Shown piece after piece: positions 1,369 through 43,149 of a stretch of 43,444 nucleotides of DNA (position 1 is its first letter; each line of letters opens with the position of its first letter). The notes under the pieces were generated by a model. It was not told the DNA's origin. It searched no databases and saw nothing but the letters and a program-made list of their open reading frames with translations. This stretch comes from a virus (Duplodnaviria > Heunggongvirae > Uroviricota > Caudoviricetes). Both the position numbers and the translations under genes were made by a program. The stretch is taken from positions 1 to 43,444 of IMG/VR virus record IMGVR_UViG_2851966386_000001. One strand, given 5' to 3'.

Positions 1369-1444
1369 GCCGATATAGCTCAGTTGGTAGAGCAGCGCAT
1401 TCGTAATGCGAAGGTCGTAGGTTCGACTCCTATTATCGGCACCA
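1369..1444 (+). tRNA. thrW: tRNA-Thr (anticodon CGT), prophage attachment-site tRNA
   Basis: 76-nt sequence GCCGATATAGCTCAGTTGGTAGAGCAGCGCATTCGTAATGCG...GGCACCA with a cloverleaf-compatible layout, anticodon loop TTCGTAA and a CCA end; an integrase gene follows immediately. Confidence 0.9.
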
Positions 1445-1458
1445 TTAAAATCAATAAG

Positions 1459-2622
1459 TTACACATCATTAGTACCTTCCTTATTTTTTGACTGGGACAA
1501 ATTTGGGACCGATGGGTTCAGGATCGAGTCTATTTGCCGTGCGTGTTCGGTAAGGTGATTAGGTGCAAGGTGAGCATATCGACGAACCATTTCGATAGAC
1601 TCCCAGCCTCCCATTTCCTGTAACACTGACAACGGGACTCCGACTTGAACCAGCCAACTTGCCCAGGTGTGTCTCAAGTCGTGAAATCTGAAATCATCAA
1701 TACCAGCCCGTCTCAGCGCCGCTTTCCAGGCTGTGTTTGCGTCATACCGCATCTTCCTTACTGTTGGCGCTTTCGTTCCGTCTGGTTTGGTACAGCTTTC
1801 CTTGTACACAAATACCCAACGGTGATGATTCCCGATTTGTTTTTTCAATACGCGACATGCAGTATCATTCAGCGCAACGCCAATTGCGCGGTTTGATTTA
1901 CTCTCTTCCGGGTTTATCCATGCCACCCGGCGCTGCATATCTATTTGTTGCCATTCAAGGTTGATGATGTTCGAGCGTCTTAAGCCTGTTGCCAGTGCAA
2001 ATTCAACAACAGACTTTAATGGCTCCGGACATTCATCAATCAGCCTTTGTGCTTCATGGGGCTCCAGCCAGCGGATCCGTTTATTCTTTGGTTGAGGCAC
2101 TTTAATAATTGGTGCCTTATCCAGCATTTTCCATTCACGCTCTGCGGCTCTTAGTAGGGCCTTTATAAATGAAAGATGCGTAGCCTTCGTTGCAACGGAC
2201 GCTGGTTTTGGCGTGTATTCTGGAACAGGTTTCCCTTTTTTTCTGCATGCTTCTGCCCTGAGTTTCCAGTTTTCCTCATGACGCCGGTTCGTCATTTTCT
2301 GCATTGCTGAATAAATTTTTGATTCAGTAATGTCTCTTAGTTGCATTCCTGCGAAATGTTGAAGCCAGAATCCGATCCGGCTTTTGTCATCGTCCAGTGA
2401 TTTTTTATGTGCTTTCTCTTCAAGCCACCTGACACACGCTTCCTCGAACGTTATATCAGGTATTTCACCAAGTTTGCTGACCCGCCATGCTTCAGCCTTT
2501 AGCTTGTCATGGAGTTCTGTCGCCTGCCTTTTGTCCTTTGTTCCAAGAGACTGTTTAAATCTTTTACCGTTCGGCAATGTGAAACTGGCGTACCATATTT
2601 CACCTCTGCGGAAGAGTGACAT
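1459..2622 (-). CDS. int: Tyrosine integrase, P22-type
   Basis: 387-aa ORF adjacent to the tRNA; near-identical to P22 Int as recalled (MSLFRRGE...[13 protein letters not shown]...RRYAHL); conserved R...HxxR...Y catalytic signature region visible. Confidence 0.95.
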
Positions 2623-3516: not shown

Positions 3517-4043
3517 TTGCGTAACTCCGATAACTCGTTAAAGCGTTCCATAAACATCCCGTAGGCATGGCCCGGTGCCAGTGGAATCACGTTGAACATC
3601 TCTGTTGCCGGGATACCTTCCAGTACAGGCCAGAAAGAGCCATCATCAAGCCCGAGATCGCGGCGTTCGGTTGCCAGCATGATGAGATCGGCATATTTCA
3701 CGGGCGTACTCATAACTGGGGGTAACCCGTATTTCTCACGGATTACGGCGTCTATTTTTTCTTCCATTTGTTTATAGTCAGGAAGAAGGCGTTTCAGTGG
3801 TGCGGGAATGTCCTGGCAATACGCTTCTGTTGCATCATGCATTAACGCTTCAAAAGCAAATTCCTGCGGCACCAGCTGGCTGCAAAGAACCGCATGTTGG
3901 GCGACGCTGTAGAAGTGCGAAAGATGACCGGCAAAGCGACAGATATTTGAAAGGGAAACCGCGATATCGTTAATATCGATGTCGTCTTTATTTATCCTGT
4001 CATAATAAAAATGCTTCCCGGAAAAAGTTTTAATAAATGACAT
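3507..4043 (-). CDS. HD-domain phosphohydrolase, 5-prime-deoxynucleotidase-like (YfdR-like, 178 aa)
   Basis: H...HD motif (SVAQHAV...LMHDATEAY). Start chosen at the internal ATG at 4043, which has a GGAGA RBS; the upstream ATG at 4070 lacks one. Confidence 0.7.
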   Translation of the reverse strand: MSFIKTFSGKHFYYDRINKDDIDINDIAVSLSNICRFAGHLSHFYSVAQHAVLCSQLVPQEFAFEALMHDATEAYCQDIPAPLKRLLPDYKQMEEKIDAVIREKYGLPPVMSTPVKYADLIMLATERRDLGLDDGSFWPVLEGIPATEMFNVIPLAPGHAYGMFMERFNELSELRKCA

Positions 4044-4170: not shown

Positions 4171-4995
4171 TCAGGCGGTGAAAGTACCAATAAAGGTTTC
4201 TACTTTGCTGTCCTTGAATTTCTCAACAAGCAGATCACGAAATTCGTTAGCCATTTCTTCCTGCACCGCCTCCAGCTGAATAATGCGCAGAACCAGTACA
4301 GGACGATCGCCAGTGATAATACTGAGGCGTAATTTAAACGGACGTTCTTTCAGACCTTCAAACGGAACGCATTTAAATTCAAATGCCACTGGCATAATGT
4401 CTTTGGTCTTCGCTTCGACAGACTCCATCAGGGAGCGTTTGCCGCTGAAGTCATTATCTTCAAAATCAGCGGTCTGGTTTGCTTCAATCGTGATTTTACG
4501 GACAGCCGCAGCCGCTTTTGTTGCCTGAATAGCGTCACCATTAGCATCAAAGCCCACAAGATAGTCGGCCCAGTCTTCAATCCATTCTGCTAGTGACTTC
4601 TGGGAGTTACGCTCGCCGTTAACAGACAACAGAGCAGAGAACGGTGCTGTCTTTTTCAGTTTGAGTGTGGCGGTGTTATCTGCGTGACCTGGTTCATCAA
4701 TAGTACCTAGGTTAAGCACACTGACGGCACGCATATTATCAGCATCGATAAAGCAGCGGGTGCCTTCATCTGCAAGATCTTTAGAATAACGGGTAAAATC
4801 ATCGATGCTGGCAGTGGAAAGCGTACCACGGAAACGGAAGCGATTTAAATTAAATTTTTCCAGATCATGAATGCGGAAATTCTCAGGCAATGCCACAGCA
4901 TCGGCACCAATCTTACTGATAATTTCATTAACACCCTGAGCAGAAATAAGGGCATGGATTTGATTAATTGCGGTTGCGTCTAAGTTCTGAGACAT
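4171..4995 (-). CDS. DUF2303 family phage protein (YfdQ-like, 274 aa)
   Basis: 274-aa ORF; sequence resembles YfdQ of the CPS-53 prophage as recalled; preserved gene order with the HD-domain and DUF551 genes. Confidence 0.65.
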
Positions 4996-5060: not shown

Positions 5061-5423
5061 TTAACGACCTGCTGCGCGGAGTTTTCCGTCAGGTTCACCG
5101 GCAAGAGTCAGCAACTGTCCCTGGTCTTCCTGCAGAATAGTCAGGCGACCACCGCGATTGACATACATCGGCGTTTCGGTGGTGTCTTCTTCGGAAATTT
5201 TCCCGCGGTTAGTCGGGCGAACATATGAGAGTTTGTGTTTGATTTTCACTCGGTTCTCATCAAACGGTTCGATTTCTAGGTTGAGCGAGACCTTACCTTT
5301 GGTTTTCGTGTTCATCACACCGGAAGCGACTTCACTGAGAACTGCGCCGATTTTGGTTTCAAATACGCCGCCGTCCAGCTCCCCGATAAATGCCTGCACA
5401 TCAGTACTGCGTTCGCTAGCCAT
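5061..5423 (-). CDS. Hypothetical early-left protein (YfdP-like, 120 aa)
   Basis: Start chosen at ATG 5423 (MASERSTDVQ...) preceded by a GAGGAG RBS 8 nt upstream; the longer track ORF lacks an RBS and runs into a structured GC-rich region. Confidence 0.6.
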   Translation of the reverse strand: MASERSTDVQAFIGELDGGVFETKIGAVLSEVASGVMNTKTKGKVSLNLEIEPFDENRVKIKHKLSYVRPTNRGKISEEDTTETPMYVNRGGRLTILQEDQGQLLTLAGEPDGKLRAAGR

Positions 5424-5893
5424 TTTGCTGCTCCTCATCATATCGACCCTGCAAGGTCGGTTGGTTTCTCCACAAAACAGAGAAGAACACCTGCGGTGGC
5501 AGCCGCCCGGATGGATTGGGTTATGAGCCCGTCGTCCGGTGATGCTCTTCTCTGTTTTGCAAAAAAGGACGGTACCAGCCGGAAGCAAGGGTACAAACTG
5601 GTACCGCCAGGACTACACACAGCATAAAGTTGTGGTGCCGGGTGCCTCCCGGTGCCTGGCGAAGGTTGCACACCAGGCGGGTGGGTATCCACAGAAGGTC
5701 GACTGTCAGCCTCAACCTTAACCCGCGTGCGCTGAGCCGCATTCACCACAACGCTAAGGATTCTCTCTGGTTGAAAATACTTAGCTGTTATGTGCCTGCT
5801 TTTAGCCACATCAGGCGAGGTGGACCTGGTTATTCCCCAACAACAAGGATTCGGTTAATCTGGATATCCCCAACAACAATAAGAGTATTCAAT

Positions 5894-6409
5894 GTGATCG
5901 CTGAATTAACGGCAGCAATGACGGCTATTCGTGAAATCGCCCAGATTGCAAAACTAATGAACGAGGCAAAAACTCAAGCTGAAGTAAATGCGGCTATTGG
6001 TGAGCTGAACTCAAAGCTTGCGTCTATTCAGCGCGAATGCGTGTCTCTCGTTGAACTGCTGGGCTCTTATCAAGAAATAAATGCTTCTCTCAAAGCTAAA
6101 ATTGCAGAATTCGAAAACTTTGAGGCTCAGACGGAAGGCTATATCCTTAACCAACTTGAGTCGGGTACTTTTGTATACTCGAAGGAGGTAATCGTGAACG
6201 GTGACAGCATAACCATGCATCTTTGCCCAAAATGTTTTGGACAAAAGATAGTATCGATACTTCAACCATTCCCGGTTAGCGAAGATGAGCTTTTTCATAA
6301 AAGCAGGTGCCTCCACTGTGAAAATAAGTTTCTGATGAATAAAAATCCGGATTACGTATCGCCTCCATCCATTGAGGAGTTGGCCAGAAAACTTAACGGC
6401 AATCTGTAG
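5894..6409 (+). CDS. Coiled-coil protein with C-terminal C4 zinc ribbon (CPKC...x21...CLHC); unknown function, candidate exclusion/defence moron
   Basis: GTG at 5894 (AAGAG 10 nt upstream) or ATG at 5918; lower GC than flanks; followed by an intrinsic terminator. Plus strand between the minus-strand early-left operon and cI, convergent with the inferred pL. Confidence 0.55.
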   Translation: MIAELTAAMTAIREIAQIAKLMNEAKTQAEVNAAIGELNSKLASIQRECVSLVELLGSYQEINASLKAKIAEFENFEAQTEGYILNQLESGTFVYSKEVIVNGDSITMHLCPKCFGQKIVSILQPFPVSEDELFHKSRCLHCENKFLMNKNPDYVSPPSIEELARKLNGNL

Positions 6410-6447
6410 ATTGCTACTGTTGTGGATATCCAGATTGTTAAAGAGCT

Positions 6448-6472
6448 AAGCGTCCTGTAGGGCGCTTTTTTG
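6448..6472 (+). terminator. Intrinsic terminator after the zinc-ribbon gene
   Basis: Hairpin AGCGTCC-TGTA-GGGCGCT (one G-U pair) followed by TTTTTTG. Confidence 0.6.
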
Positions 6473-6557
6473 TTGCTAACGAATCATCCTGGACTTCATA
6501 TGCCCCAGGCGGCTACTTCGTGGGCGTCCTGCCTGTTCGTTATCTTTGATATAAAAT

Positions 6558-6571
6558 CTAACTTAACTTAG
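6558..6571. promoter_or_regulatory. oL-like operator (CTAAC-TTAA-CTTAG) with putative leftward pL
   Basis: Matches the palindromic operator form found at oR; lies just beyond the cI stop; further CTTAG half-sites at 6603, 6616 and 6636; candidate TTGCCA/TAGATT promoter elements on the minus strand. Confidence 0.45.
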
Positions 6572-6636
6572 TTATTATGGCAAGAGAAAACACCAAACTT
6601 TTCTTAGTTCGGTGCCTTAGTTAGAGAAGAGAGGTC

Positions 6637-7263
6637 TTAGAGTTCGTATTGAACTCCTTTGACTACACCAATGATAAGGCAATTACCATTGATAGGGATG
6701 TTGGGATACCGAGGATTTAATGGCACTAAAAACTTTTGAGGGCCATCGATGACTAATTTTTTTACTGTAGCTTCGTTTGTTCCATCAAGTCGAGCGATGA
6801 CTATTTTTCCATGACGAGGTTCTGCATCTGGATCTACAATCACTGTTGCGCCTTCTGGTATTGTTGGGAGGCCATTAGGGTTAGTCATGGAGTCACCTTT
6901 AACCTCTAATGCAAATGAGTTATCACCAATCTTTAATGATGTATCTACCCACTTGTCCACTTCACTAAACACTTCTGCTGCCCTGCACTCAGTAAACTGC
7001 CCAGCCTGAACCCACGATATTACAGGAACTCTGCGCATGTTTGTGACGAGTTTGCCTTCAAACTCAGCACCATAAAGAATGTAATCTATTGACGTATTGA
7101 AGAACTTCGCTAATTTCGAAAGTGCCTCCCCACCAGGGGTATTGATGTCTTTCTCCCAGTACCCCACAGCAACGTCGCTTACTCCACAAAATTTACCCAA
7201 TTCTTTCTGGGACGTTCCGGTAACTCTTCTCAGAGCTTTTATACGCTGACCAACCGTTTCCAT
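6637..7263 (-). CDS. cI: CI-type immunity repressor (HTH_XRE plus S24 LexA-like peptidase)
   Basis: N-terminal HTH, an Ala-Gly autocleavage site (WVQAGQF), and a GDSM...KK Ser/Lys dyad; divergent from cro. Confidence 0.9.
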   Translation of the reverse strand: METVGQRIKALRRVTGTSQKELGKFCGVSDVAVGYWEKDINTPGGEALSKLAKFFNTSIDYILYGAEFEGKLVTNMRRVPVISWVQAGQFTECRAAEVFSEVDKWVDTSLKIGDNSFALEVKGDSMTNPNGLPTIPEGATVIVDPDAEPRHGKIVIARLDGTNEATVKKLVIDGPQKFLVPLNPRYPNIPINGNCLIIGVVKGVQYEL

Positions 7264-7360: not shown

Positions 7361-7561
7361 ATGACAACTGACGATATCGAAAGCTACTTCGGCAGTATTG
7401 AGAAAGTTGCTGCTTTTTTCGGCATAACAACTGAAGCCGTTTATCAGTGGCGAAACCGTCCGGGCCAGTTAATTCCAAAAGGACGTGCAGCAGAAGCTGC
7501 ATATAGAACTTGCGGACGGTTGCCATTTAAACCTGAGCTTTATGAAAAATCTAATGGATAA
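7361..7561 (+). CDS. cro: Cro-like repressor (66 aa)
   Basis: Small HTH protein divergent from cI; GGAGGG RBS upstream of the ATG. Confidence 0.8.
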   Translation: MTTDDIESYFGSIEKVAAFFGITTEAVYQWRNRPGQLIPKGRAAEAAYRTCGRLPFKPELYEKSNG

Positions 7562-41935: not shown

Positions 41936-42826
41936 TCAGGCTGCCAGATCATCGTTTCCGATGGAAGCATAATAAGCTTTTTCTGCTTCTGCCGGAGGAG
42001 TATGGCCCAGCCTTTCCAGCAATCGTCGATTGTTATACCAGTCCACCCACGTGAGTGTGGCCAGTTCCACTTCTGCACGGTTTTTCCAGCTCTTACGGTG
42101 TATTACCTCCGCTTTGTAAAGACCATTGATGCTCTCCGCCATCGCGTTGTCATACGAGTCGCCTGTACTTCCTGTTGATGCCAGTAATCCGGCTTCCTTA
42201 AGCCGCTGTGTGTAGGCCAGCGATACATACTGAGAACCTTTATCACTGTGATGGACCGTGCCGGACGGTCGACGGGCCCATAACGCCTGCTCCAGTGCAT
42301 CCAGCACGAATGTCGTTTCCATGGACGATGAGACCCGCCACCCCACGATGTATCCGGCAAACACATCAATGATGAACGCCACATAGACGAAGCCCCGCCA
42401 TGTGCTGACGTAAGTAAAATCAGCCACCCACAGCTGGTCAGGTCGTTCTGCCACGAACTGACGGTTTACGCGGTCGCCTGCGGCAACGGCTTTCCGGCTG
42501 ATGGTCGTACGGACCTTTTTACCCCGGAGAACACCGGCAAGTCCCATAACCGCCATGAGACGTGCCACAGTGCATCTGGCCACTCTGATACCTTCCCGTA
42601 ACAACTGACGCCAGACTTTACGCACACCGTATACCTTGTGATTTTCATCGTATACGCGCTGTATCTCTTTCTTCAGCCAGTCATCGCGCTGCGCACGGGC
42701 ACTGCGTTTATCCGGATGATGTCGCTGTTGCTGACAGTGGTAATACGTTGACGGGGCAATATGCAGTTCGCTGCATAGCGGTCCGACCCCGTACTGCTCA
42801 CGCAGCTTATCCAGCAGTGGCATCAT
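41936..42826 (-). CDS. IS3-family transposase OrfB (DDE integrase domain)
   Basis: 296-aa ORF with a DDE-type catalytic region (…DFTYV…HSDKGSQY…DNAMAES…) downstream of orfA. Confidence 0.9.
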
Positions 42827-43149
42827 TTTTTCCAGAGGCGGTCGAACTCCGCCTTCGCAAAATAAGCGGAAGCCTGGCGAAGGATATCGTTACTGCGGCG
42901 CAGTTCACGATTTTCACGTTCCAGCTCTTTCAGACGCTGACGTTCAGCGGTGGTGAGCCCTCCATCACCGCCCCCGGTATCCCGCTCATGCTGGCGAACC
43001 CAGACACGCAGAGTCTCCGGCGTACAGCCAATCTTTGGAGCAATGGAACAAATTGTCGCCCATTGTGAGTCATATTCGCTCTGACTTTCCAGAACCATAC
43101 GGACTGCCCGTTGACGGACTTCGGGGGAAAAACGAGTATTTTTAGTCAT
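42823..43149 (-). CDS. IS3-family transposase OrfA (HTH)
   Basis: 108-aa [56 protein letters not shown]... with a leucine-zipper-like C-terminus; the stop overlaps the orfB start at an A-rich run (TGGAAAAAATGATG). Confidence 0.9.

Follow-up and report, generated by a model that had tools for sequence, protein, structure and literature searches.

The window analysed here, the whole 43,444-nt stretch of viral DNA, carries a lambdoid prophage of the SfV/e14 type that shares about 99.7% identity with phage PhiR49_1. As listed in Table 1, positions 5430–5893 constitute, on the minus strand, the untranslated leader of the yfdP–yfdQ...xis–int operon, and yfdP, the first early-left gene, lies directly downstream. 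YfdP had no match in Pfam or PADLOC. The probable pL overlaps an operator-like site, CTAACTTAACTTAG (6558–6571), and the pattern CTAA-N5-CTTAG was found only at this site and twice in oR (0.07 occurrences expected). The leader that follows pL is homologous to the one following the e14 promoter, TTGACA-17-TAATGT. On its way to yfdP, the pL transcript crosses in antisense the gene of 171 aa, which holds the position of sieB in Rac and for which Pfam and PADLOC returned nothing.

Table 1. Features of the early-left leader and its surroundings (window coordinates).
Feature	Position	Strand	Evidence
Start of yfdP: SD GAGGAG; true ATG	5436–5431; 5423–5421	minus	sequence, checked frame, YfdP annotation in PhiR49_1
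Small hairpin CGACCU-UGCA-GGGUCG, immediately before the yfdP RBS	5444–5459	minus	MFE structure, sequence
Y-shaped tRNA-like element	5473–5559	minus	MFE z-score –5.02, covariation
Intrinsic terminator	5561–5608	minus	inverted repeat, MFE structure, KilS homology
Unpaired linker motif UGCUGUGUGUAGUCC, also conserved in e14, ST64B and Rac KilS	5610–5624	minus	alignment, kilS annotation
STnc100-family RNA domain, early-left subfamily, ~125 nt	5628–5753	minus	Rfam, shared 19-mer, covariation
P1	5752–5744/5637–5629	minus	
P2	5740–5725	minus	
P3, closing GGG/CCC	5724–5722/5681–5679	minus	
P4	5678–5674/5658–5654	minus	
P5, invariant hairpin CCGGG-AGGCA-CCCGG	5652–5638	minus	
Pseudoknot, 5' strand AAGGUUG	5713–5719	minus	covarying partners across clusters
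Pseudoknot, 3' strand CAACCUU, in the P4 loop	5662–5668	minus	covariation, permutation, fixed-column count
5' flank of the domain, homologous to e14 and Rac-type leaders	5754–5823	minus	alignment, MFE structure
Two direct repeats TCCCCAACAACAA	5834–5846, 5867–5879	none	repeat search
19-nt inverted repeat, left arm and partner	5857–5875, 6418–6436	none	repeat search
Reverse-oriented moron gene, 171 aa, coiled coil and CxxC..CxxC	5894–6409	plus	ORF list, domain searches
Perfect rrn-type boxA GCUCUUUAACAA, hairpin before it at 6467–6448	6435–6446	minus	only exact match in the window
Probable pL, TTGCCA-17-TAGATT	6555–6583	minus	promoter scan

The boxA is located about 100 nt after pL and outside 5430–5893. 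It is a perfect GCUCUUUAACAA preceded by a hairpin; in rrn operons, too, the order is a boxB-like hairpin and then boxA. We found no boxB matching that of a known N, and a non-exhaustive search of the proteins yielded no N gene. The boxA is conserved in PhiR49_1 and SfIV but absent from e14, SfV, ST64B, mEp460 and Rac, and it occurs only in relatives that have reverse-oriented morons in the leader. The first-pass annotation had entertained a nut-like function for 5430–5893 itself; that region contains no boxA, the perfect copy lying upstream in the same transcript. Its remark that no N-like gene is evident agrees with the ORF list, which shows no N-like ORF between pL and yfdP; the sole minus-strand ORF there is antisense to the better-supported plus-strand gene.

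Open reading frames do run through the leader on both strands, as had been pointed out earlier: two on the minus strand (123 and 73 aa) and two on the plus strand (43 and 60 aa), besides a 5' extension of the plus-strand ORF. If the region were a protein gene, the candidate would be the 123-aa minus-strand ORF (5438–5809), which overlaps the segment whose e14 homologue is annotated as ymfH. That this ORF exists, and that annotations place a hypothetical protein on the homologous DNA of K-12 and of many genomes, speaks for such a gene. However, a Pfam search of the overlapping ORFs gave no match, and the differences from ST64B follow a non-coding pattern: substitutions are spread over the three codon positions as 19/25/23, with no third-position excess, and indels of 1, 1, 2 and 22 nt break the reading frame, the 123-aa ORF not being kept in ST64B. 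Furthermore, the columns of that ORF show RNA covariation, including G–U pairs. On these grounds we rejected a coding reading of both the 123-aa and the 73-aa ORF. None of the overlapping ORFs is preserved as a coding sequence, and a protein gene here is extremely improbable.

The alternative put forward in the first-pass annotation, RNA structure rather than coding, fared well. The region is indeed GC-rich (G+C 0.54–0.56, against 0.40–0.46 in the flanks), and its folding is strand-specific: for 5555–5790 the minus strand has a z-score of –3.50, the plus strand one of –1.06; for 5425–5565 the z-score was –5.02. Folding and covariation analysis found both sequence and structure conserved in viral contigs, and because this conservation and covariation extend across hundreds of phage contigs, the structure goes beyond chance. 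The region is a folded RNA leader, a chain of conserved RNA modules of which three are the main ones. DNA similar to it is present in 2779 of the 5426 complete E. coli genomes searched; the K-12 copies, in e14 and Rac, are decayed or rearranged.

An Rfam search matched 5782–5559 (minus strand) to RF02076, STnc100, over the full length of the model (1–206), at 40.3 bits and E = 1.7e-6, which falls below the gathering score of the family, 47 bits. Relatives of the window copy scored similarly low (SfV 39.5, ST64B 35.1 and P1 33.4 bits). An exact 19-mer from the domain recurs in at least 120 contigs of IMG/VR, which form 69 clusters, and RNAalifold on 31 representatives recovered P1–P5. In the helices, 97.2% of the cells were paired, compared with 83.9% after shuffling and at most 49% in slid controls; double changes occur in 18 of the 25 domain pairs, and Rac-like phages carry a compensatory CCUGG/CCAGG variant of P5. 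The CCTGG/CCAGG stem noticed earlier in the window is also real and corresponds to helix P4. A covariance model built from the 31 representatives detected copies outside its seed in P1 (77.9 bits), e14 (69.6 bits) and Rac (66.5 bits); the 86.7 bits of the window copy are not independent evidence, because the window is in the seed. With this model, we found a single copy of the domain in the window, none of it in the pR operon and none near Q or a holin gene.

Comparison of the sequences thus identifies the domain as a divergent homologue of STnc100/PasD, belonging to a separate subfamily. It shares with these RNAs the P1–P5 junction, the GGUGAAU and CACCGGGAGGCACCCGGCACC core and a sense orientation within long phage operons; with STnc100, specifically, the fold of P1, P2, P4 and P5 and the invariant CCGGGAGGCACCCGGCACC. 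The core has about 22 invariant nucleotides. An intrinsic terminator usually follows 22–36 nt downstream (83 of 121 family members), and in the window it starts 20 nt after P1. In contrast to STnc100, P2 of the window copy contains GCGGCUCAGCGCACGC in place of CCCCCUNNGCGGNGGGG, there is no adjacent consensus promoter, and the position differs. Canonical members are found in Q-controlled late operons, with Q (or stx2) on one side and the lysis genes on the other, whereas the window copy sits in the pL leader downstream of cI; its subfamily is always on the repressor's strand, with a cI-like gene 0.3–2.4 kb upstream, or else belongs to the ban operon of P1. Across the family, the genes downstream are unrelated to one another, and tandem arrays of 2–5 copies occur. 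The canonical relatives STnc100 and PasD are discrete RNAs of ~160–210 nt that need Hfq for their stability (PMC5331693, PMC8550237).

Two other leads were discarded. A look-alike in lambda, GUUGUGCUG...CAGCACAAC around CCGGAAGCAGAACCGG (lambda 44857–44940), was not matched by the covariance model. Searching genome contigs with the loose pattern GGTGAATGCGGCN{1,3}AGCGC gave at least 120 listed matches, nearly all of them chance occurrences in unrelated, largely GC-rich DNA.

Within the domain, the loop of P4 pairs back with an upstream strand, and the partners covary across clusters, for example as AUCAGC/GCUGGU, CCAGUC/GACUGG and AGACUGAC/GUCAGUCU. In a permutation test, the strands formed 7.58 bp with their own partners against 5.67 bp in cross pairings (0/100000), and the fixed-column count gave 68.3% versus 54.3% (0/500). 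The stretch 5753–5628 is therefore a five-helix junction with a pseudoknot.

Behind the domain, and formed together with it in the MFE structure, is the terminator, with an 11-bp stem (GGCGGUACCAG/CUGGUACCGUC) and a 19-nt loop, followed by C and U6. With a loop longer than 8 nt it escaped a pattern scan; the 19-nt loop may also make the terminator weak. The module has been swapped independently of the domain, as attested by a mosaic junction at 5609 in mEp460/Stx2c phages. When aligned with the 98-nt KilS of the E. coli K-12 Rac prophage (b4833), the 3' ~65 nt, comprising motif and terminator, could be matched, including a run of 21 identical nucleotides, while the 5' part of KilS did not align with the window. 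Linker and terminator are, by this alignment, homologous to the 3' half of KilS, with the motif UGCUGUGUGUAGUCCUGGCGG and a terminator with a long loop in common. The setting is similar as well: each is part of the untranslated leader that precedes the first early-left gene. In both cases the repressor gene is located upstream, and between it and the RNA stands a reverse-oriented gene of the exclusion type (sieB in Rac, the 171-aa gene in the window). The order of modules differs, however, in that the STnc100-like domain of Rac follows the KilS terminator and abuts kilR, whereas the window domain precedes the terminator. KilS, an sRNA that associates with Hfq, comes from the kilR 5' UTR, has been verified by northern blot and has its own TSS (PMC8175672), and transcription entry into kilR depends on NusG/Rho termination upstream (PMC5793797).

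The last large module before yfdP is the element at 5559–5473. An 11-bp inverted repeat reported earlier for this area exists, though at 5476–5486 and 5546–5556, and is part of a 24-nt inverted repeat (arms 5473–5496 and 5536–5559, 83% complementary). The outer stem, of ~25 bp, carries two arms, one with CCGGA/UCCGG capped by GGG-CUCAUAA-CCC (5530–5518) and the other GCGG-CUGCCA-CCGC (5506–5493). Sixty variants were collected from viral contigs, with 92.0% paired against 85.4% after shuffling, seven double-change pairs, and at most 49% in slid controls; the element is thus a conserved tRNA-like three-way junction. Its likeness to tRNA is limited to this topology and to an anticodon-arm-like GGGCUCAUAACCC, reminiscent of initiator tRNA. 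ARAGORN did not call it, the sole tRNA reported for the window being tRNA-Thr at 1369–1444, and an Rfam search of 5430–5620 at E values up to 10 produced noise with no tRNA match. In the Klebsiella phage GZ7, the element comes directly after tRNA-Asn and tRNA-Arg.

Taken together, we favor, with a probability of roughly 0.55, a reading in which the region works as a leader/attenuator that releases a structured, Hfq-type RNA. Transcripts from pL, possibly along with read-through from cI, would cross about 0.9 kb of untranslated RNA, a passage that the boxA may assist. The domain would fold and most transcripts would stop at 5608–5561, which would keep yfdP...int off and free a U-tailed RNA, stable and structured, of the same Hfq-sRNA type as STnc100, PasD and KilS. 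The fraction reading through would carry the tRNA-like module as a 5' UTR, and the long stem of that module could be a processing site for RNase III or RNase P/E. The leader thus probably gates early gene expression. These features fit the first-pass annotation in part: the region is RNA structure and, more precisely, a cis leader of the early-left operon with a small-RNA-like unit whose nearest known relatives, STnc100/PasD and KilS, are all sRNAs of prophages. A comparable arrangement is the 6S leader of lambda, between pR' and tR': transcription of many canonical family members begins at a promoter resembling pR' (TTGACN-18-TAAATT) and stops at the first terminator, so that many of them would be short leader RNAs made without antitermination. 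StxS exemplifies such a short leader RNA that acts in trans. The window copy is unlike the 6S leader in not being promoter-proximal and in belonging to the early-left operon, and lambda is not matched by the covariance model.

An sRNA gene independent of the operon, with its own promoter, acting solely by base pairing in trans and having no role for yfdP, seems unlikely to us. The reported Hfq association of STnc100, PasD and KilS, and the separate TSS of KilS (PMC8175672, PMC8550237), would agree with it, as would the conservation of the unpaired UGCUGUGUGUAGUCC before the terminator. In SfV, moreover, a terminator is annotated just upstream of the sRNA-like unit, and the e14 and SfV counterparts have a –35 box, AAGACA, that matches at 4/6 positions with 17-nt spacing. 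In the window, however, a scan beside the domain found no good sigma-70 promoter; the only site by scoring was AAAGCA-17-TATTTT, a weak promoter-like site in the 5' flank (–10 at 5779–5774) with a –35 match of 2/6 and a score of 6.5 on a 12.5-point scale, compared with 9–10 for family members with clear promoters. Furthermore, since the unit has the same orientation as the pL operon that contains it, pL transcripts must be affected by its terminator as well. Complementarity to the KilS partner yncL was not significant either, as 26–46% of shuffles equalled the 10 bp (UGUGUGUAGU/ACUAUACACA) between the KilS-shared motif and the yncL 5' UTR.

Two readings that give the domain a direct say over termination are both quite improbable. 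A processive antiterminator acting in cis, like put of HK022, would bind RNA polymerase, carry it through 5608–5561 and later terminators, and so replace N. The window does resemble HK022 in having a cis RNA in the early-operon leader of an N-less lambdoid phage, no N-like gene being found between pL and yfdP and the domain preceding a terminator ahead of a long operon; the invariant core would suit binding to a conserved host machine, and in about 30 contexts the family begins exactly at a strong promoter, as putL does. The first-pass annotation had raised this kinship, which the comparison does not support: HK022 gave no covariance-model match and shares no motif, put and the element are dissimilar in sequence, the architecture is not alike (five helices and a pseudoknot in ~125 nt versus two stems in ~70 nt; PMC9378689), and put is present in both early operons, whereas the window element occurs once in 43 kb. 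The family is also found in Q-controlled late operons, where an RNA antiterminator is not needed, and after the terminator in Rac-like phages. Finally, the sizes of the canonical RNAs (PMC5331693, PMC8550237) are consistent with ends at the terminator behind the core, which therefore appears to work despite the domain. Little credence is likewise due to a riboswitch-like or factor-sensing attenuator, in which the junction would bind a small ligand or a protein of host or phage and so control either termination at 5608–5561 or how the following gene is translated. In its favor, the pseudoknotted multi-helix junction is deeply conserved and aptamer-like, and with a terminator or (Rac, P1) a start codon 25–30 nt behind it, it is in the classic riboswitch position. 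However, we saw no conserved, mutually exclusive pairing between domain and terminator in the MFE structure or in several clusters inspected; a partial pairing of the P2 3' arm with the terminator 5' arm, seen in some late-type clusters, was inconsistent and absent from the window. The independent exchange of the terminator, the unrelated downstream genes, the tandem arrays and the lack of Rfam riboswitch matches also argue against it.

Some observations point beyond the attenuator reading. In Rac-like phages and P1, the domain follows the terminator and lies 25–30 nt ahead of a start codon, a placement that suggests a cis role in the mRNA and is not explained by the sRNA/attenuator picture. 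Conceivably, though this is doubtful, the core is a cis RNA rather than a base-pairing sRNA, binds either a small ligand or a conserved machine of the host, such as RNA polymerase, Rho/Nus factors or the ribosome, and sets read-through or translation at lambdoid operon boundaries; these would be the pL leader, the Rac kilR 5' UTR, P1 tciA and the Q-to-lysis leader of Stx/Fels-1, and the terminated 'sRNAs' STnc100 and PasD would be by-products. If the core were such a control element, it would represent a new route of early-gene timing for N-less lambdoid phages.

Under the leader/attenuator reading, the leader is a useful refinement of a known prophage small-RNA fold and not a new principle. 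An Rfam 'sRNA' family so far without function would gain a second, regulatory position, as a gate that separates the immunity region from the delayed-early genes (those for recombination and excision, and kil), and would be tied to KilS and to the control of kilR entry by termination. The fold, with its pseudoknot and invariant core, is more elaborate than that of a typical Hfq sRNA. Hypothetical ORFs such as ymfH, annotated over conserved RNA, are probably mis-annotations.

The 5' flank of the domain contains a hairpin CCAC..GUGG (5823–5806), AAAAGCAGGCACA and a second hairpin CUAAG..CUUAG (5784–5754). Further upstream, the direct repeats and the 19-nt inverted repeat flank the plus-strand 171-aa gene, and the mosaic junctions with SfV (5823) and with SfIV/Kati (5877) fall in this area.

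Region 5430-5893 lies in a lambdoid prophage of the SfV/SfIV/ST64B/e14 (CPS-53-like) group, with ~99.7% identity to Escherichia phage PhiR49_1 across the region. The first-pass annotation had described it as GC-rich and non-coding despite open reading frames on both strands, and both descriptions hold. The G+C content is 0.54-0.56, versus 0.40-0.46 in the flanks, and the frames match no Pfam family. Relative to the ST64B copy (77% identical), substitutions in the 123-aa frame fall 19/25/23 across codon positions, with no third-position excess, and indels of 1, 1, 2 and 22 nt break the frame; a protein-coding function is hardly credible. Predicted folding is minus-strand-specific (5555-5790, z = -3.50 on the minus strand versus -1.06; 5425-5565, z = -5.02). 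The inverted repeat noticed earlier was recovered at slightly shifted coordinates, its 11-mers (5476-5486 and 5546-5556) being part of a 24-nt repeat, 5473-5496/5536-5559, and the CCTGG/CCAGG stem is at 5674-5678/5654-5658.

The sole Rfam match was STnc100 (RF02076), at 5782-5559(-), with 40.3 bits (E = 1.7e-6), short of the gathering score of 47. Our comparisons show conserved non-coding RNA modules strung together in operon sense, with an intrinsic terminator between the STnc100-like domain and yfdP (see the table). Our probability is about 0.9 that this region is non-coding and forms a conserved, structured RNA of the STnc100-like family.

Modules of the leader RNA and neighbouring genes
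Feature	Position	Strand	Remarks
STnc100-like domain (module 1)	5753-5628	-	Rfam match, shared 19-mer, covariation
Linker + terminator (module 2)	5624-5561	-	
tRNA-like element (module 3)	5559-5473	-	three-way junction
Early-left operon		-	integrase, YfdT-like, EaE-like, HD hydrolase, YfdQ, YfdP
YfdQ (DUF2303)	4171-4995	-	
yfdP true start	ATG 5423	-	SD GAGGAG 5436-5431
171-aa gene	5894-6409	+	between RNA region and cI; own terminator 6448-6467
cI-type repressor	6637-7263	-	
cro	7361-7561	+	CII-like gene next

A 19-mer within the domain, CCGGGAGGCACCCGGCACC, was found in at least 120 IMG/VR contigs, which form 69 clusters with mutual similarity below 90% over 250 nt. Anchoring the sequences and applying RNAalifold to 31 representatives gave a fold in which closing helix P1 leads into the conserved GGUGAAU and a P2 hairpin bulged on its 3' side; next come a short P3-closing helix (GCG/CGC), a variable insert, hairpin P4 and hairpin P5, CCGGG-AGGCA-CCCGG, which abuts P1. 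When a covariance model made from these representatives was used to align 136 matches (102 distinct), 97.2% of helix cells were paired, versus 83.9% after shuffling, with double changes at 18 of 25 pairs and slid controls at or below 49%; this alignment is fitted to the model, and an unfitted MAFFT alignment gives the same pairs. The constancy of P5 in this first set carries no weight, because the 19-mer used for selection contains P5; in Rac-like phages, P5 reads CCUGG-AGGCA-CCAGG, a compensatory change. The model finds one copy in the window, whose 86.7 bits are circular, the window sequence having sat in the seed. Independent support for this copy comes instead from the Rfam match, the exact 19-mer and the out-of-seed matches in phage P1 (77.9 bits), e14 (69.6) and Rac (66.5).

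The P4 loop also pairs with the strand directly 3' of P2 to form a pseudoknot (in the window, AAGGUUG 5719-5713 with CAACCUU 5668-5662). Its partners covary across clusters (AUCAGC/GCUGGU, CCAGUC/GACUGG, AGACUGAC/GUCAGUCU). In a register-free permutation test, strands formed 7.58 bp with their own loop and 5.67 bp with loops of other clusters, and 0 of 100000 permutations attained the observed value; at fixed columns, unfitted to the pseudoknot, pairing was 68.3% versus 54.3% (0/500).

Downstream of P1 come UUUA, the motif UGCUGUGUGUAGUCC and an 11-bp stem, GGCGGUACCAG/CUGGUACCGUC, with a 19-nt loop, then C and U6. This linker and terminator are homologous to the 3' half of KilS, with which they share the identical run UGCUGUGUGUAGUCCUGGCGG. 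KilS is a 98-nt, Hfq-associated, northern-verified sRNA from the kilR 5' UTR of the Rac prophage (PMC8175672). In Rac, KilS and its terminator come first, followed by the STnc100-like domain and, ~25 nt on, kilR, whereas the window has the domain ahead of the terminator. Modules are exchangeable, since mEp460 and Stx2c phages, which have only 5380-5609 in common with the window, carry a much more divergent domain (25.6 bits) upstream of the same terminator. In mEp460 this domain (3740-3876, at the same position, P5 = CCGG-AGAUCAGCA-CCGG) also stands before the same tRNA-like element; the family thus reaches beyond the invariant 19-mer. In one IMG/VR contig (L267), the 5' strand of P1 and P2 run directly into the KilS-like motif and terminator, the remaining core being missing, an arrangement suggestive of deletion or recombination between modules. 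A lambda segment between tR' and S (44857-44940), with GUUGUGCUG...CAGCACAAC around AAUUAAGCGAAUACCGGAAGCAGAACCGGAUCACC, resembles P1/GGUGAAU/P5, but the covariance model gives no match there.

The inverted repeat of the first-pass annotation turns out to be the ~25-bp outer stem of the three-way junction. Arm 1 is CCGGA/UCCGG capped by CGACGGGCUCAUAACCCAA (for comparison, the E. coli initiator tRNA has CGUCGGGCUCAUAACCCGA as its anticodon arm), and arm 2 is GCGG-CUGCCA-CCGC. A scan found the element in at least 120 contigs, as 60 variants, with compensatory changes that include AGAGC/GCUCU to AGGGC/GCCCU and CCGGA/UCCGG to CCGGG/CCCGG, CCAGG/CCUGG or CCUGAUG/CAUCAGG. Across 21 sequences, 92.0% of cells were paired versus 85.4% shuffled (0/500), with double changes at 7 pairs and slid controls at or below 49%, and G-U pairs assign the RNA to the minus strand. 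Klebsiella phages have this core immediately 3' of tRNA-Asn and tRNA-Arg, between Q and holin. Neither ARAGORN nor the Rfam tRNA model recognised the element; it is tRNA-like or tRNA-derived, not a tRNA.

Canonical members of the family sit in the late operon, in the interval from Q to the lysis genes, with Q proteins, a methylase or stx2B upstream and esterases or holins downstream. The VT2-Sakai copy is flanked by stx2B and the nanS-p esterase, Fels-1 carries three in its Q-holin interval (L133, 2525-4195), and the late leaders of some phages (L073, L026, L035, L016) carry tandem arrays of 2-5 copies ~250-480 nt apart. Of ~95 distinct contexts upstream, ~30 have a consensus promoter, TTGACN-18-TAAATT, that ends 8 nt short of GGUGAAU, so that in those the RNA begins at P1, and 83 of 121 members have a canonical intrinsic terminator 22-36 nt 3' of the core. 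Eleven STnc100 copies are transcribed in EDL933, with northern-blot confirmation for one (PMC5331693); the sRNAs PasD1 and PasD2 depend on Hfq (PMC8550237), and a 2026 preprint proposes a common origin for PasD and STnc100 (10.64898/2026.05.13.724894).

The window copy differs from canonical STnc100 and belongs to a separate subfamily (GGUGAAUGCGGC..., with GCGGCUCAGCGCACGC as P2), found in at least 120 contigs by a second scan; none of its members has the consensus promoter adjoining the domain. Wherever flanks are readable, it shares its strand with a cI-like repressor and lies 0.3-2.4 kb downstream, often preceded by a YmfJ-like gene. This constant placement marks it as an early-left leader element. 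The one exception is phage P1, whose copy (2407-2532, minus strand) belongs to the ban operon, with tRNA-Thr on one side and tciA on the other, overlapping the oppositely annotated upl promoter region and ending ~30 nt before tciA. K-12 carries two copies. The one in e14 (L131, 3187-3311) has a damaged P5 hairpin and is overlain by the annotated ORF ymfH, which is for that reason probably spurious; the one in Rac (L357, 4262-4392) is unannotated, between the sRNA gene kilS and kilR.

Upstream, the operator-like CTAA-N5-CTTAG occurs three times in the window (0.07 expected), twice in oR and once at 6558-6571, where it overlaps a minus-strand promoter-like site, TTGCCA-17-TAGATT (6583-6555). Downstream of this site, the RNA shares homology with the leader behind the strong e14 promoter TTGACA-17-TAATGT. 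Judged from these likenesses, 6583-6555 is probably pL, ~0.8 kb upstream of the domain, and its transcript would cross the 171-aa gene in antisense. At 6446-6435(-), ~100 nt after pL and preceded by a hairpin (6448-6467), lies GCUCUUUAACAA, a perfect boxA of the rrn type with no second exact match in the window. It is kept in PhiR49_1 and SfIV, both with reverse-oriented genes in the leader, and is missing from the compared leaders of e14, SfV, ST64B, mEp460 and Rac. Given what is established for rrn and CRISPR boxA, Nus-factor-mediated protection of the long untranslated pL RNA against Rho is plausible.

We propose that pL transcripts, perhaps together with read-through from cI, fold the domain and that most end at 5561; this would keep yfdP...int silent and free a structured, U-tailed RNA of the STnc100/PasD/KilS kind. 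The read-through RNA would carry the tRNA-like element as a 5' UTR, possibly processed, and the long loop may weaken the terminator. This composite of leader, terminator and sRNA, built from sequence comparison, has in our estimate a somewhat better than even chance of being correct. In Rac, NusG/Rho-dependent termination restrains transcription into kilR (PMC5793797), so in this relative at least the leader does act as a point of control. An sRNA gene that works solely in trans from a weak promoter of its own, an explanation that overlaps the composite one, seems fairly unlikely. In Rac and P1, the domain abuts the start codon with no terminator between, which hints at a cis role outside the composite model; a reading of the core not as an sRNA but as an element controlling operon boundaries in cis strikes us as doubtful.

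The earlier suggestion of a cis-acting or small RNA survives as a conserved structured leader RNA, kin to STnc100 and KilS, without its put membership. Antitermination of the put type is improbable: the region has no similarity to put and is present in one copy in the window, relatives build up as discrete terminated RNAs, and the family also occurs in Q-controlled late operons. Equally improbable is a riboswitch-like sensor, which would suit the elaborate, invariant core; however, mutually exclusive pairing between domain and terminator was not found, and the modules are swapped independently.

STnc100/PasD, to which the fold belongs, is an established family, and the terminator module is that of an sRNA already described, KilS. 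Set against the Rfam entry and the literature compared, the early-left subfamily, which scores below the Rfam threshold, and its constant placement downstream of the repressor appear new, as do the pseudoknot, the combination of the domain with a KilS-type terminator and a tRNA-like junction, and the presence of boxA on the same transcript.

The 171-aa gene encodes a coiled coil plus CxxC..CxxC, with no match in Pfam or PADLOC; in Rac its position, antisense within the pL leader, is held by sieB. A 19-nt inverted repeat (5857-5875/6418-6436, 95%) brackets the gene, with two direct repeats TCCCCAACAACAA upstream (within 5834-5879), and mosaic junctions relative to SfV and SfIV are located around the flanking repeats. 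To the right of cro, ST64B, SfV and mEp460 carry isrK and a C4 antisense RNA (ant/immI-type module), families with no match in the window. An ALIL pseudoknot (120 bits) occurs at 42752-42868(-), near the right end of the window, and at the left end a tRNA-Thr (CGT) gene (1369-1444, plus strand) adjoins the integrase and may mark the attachment site.
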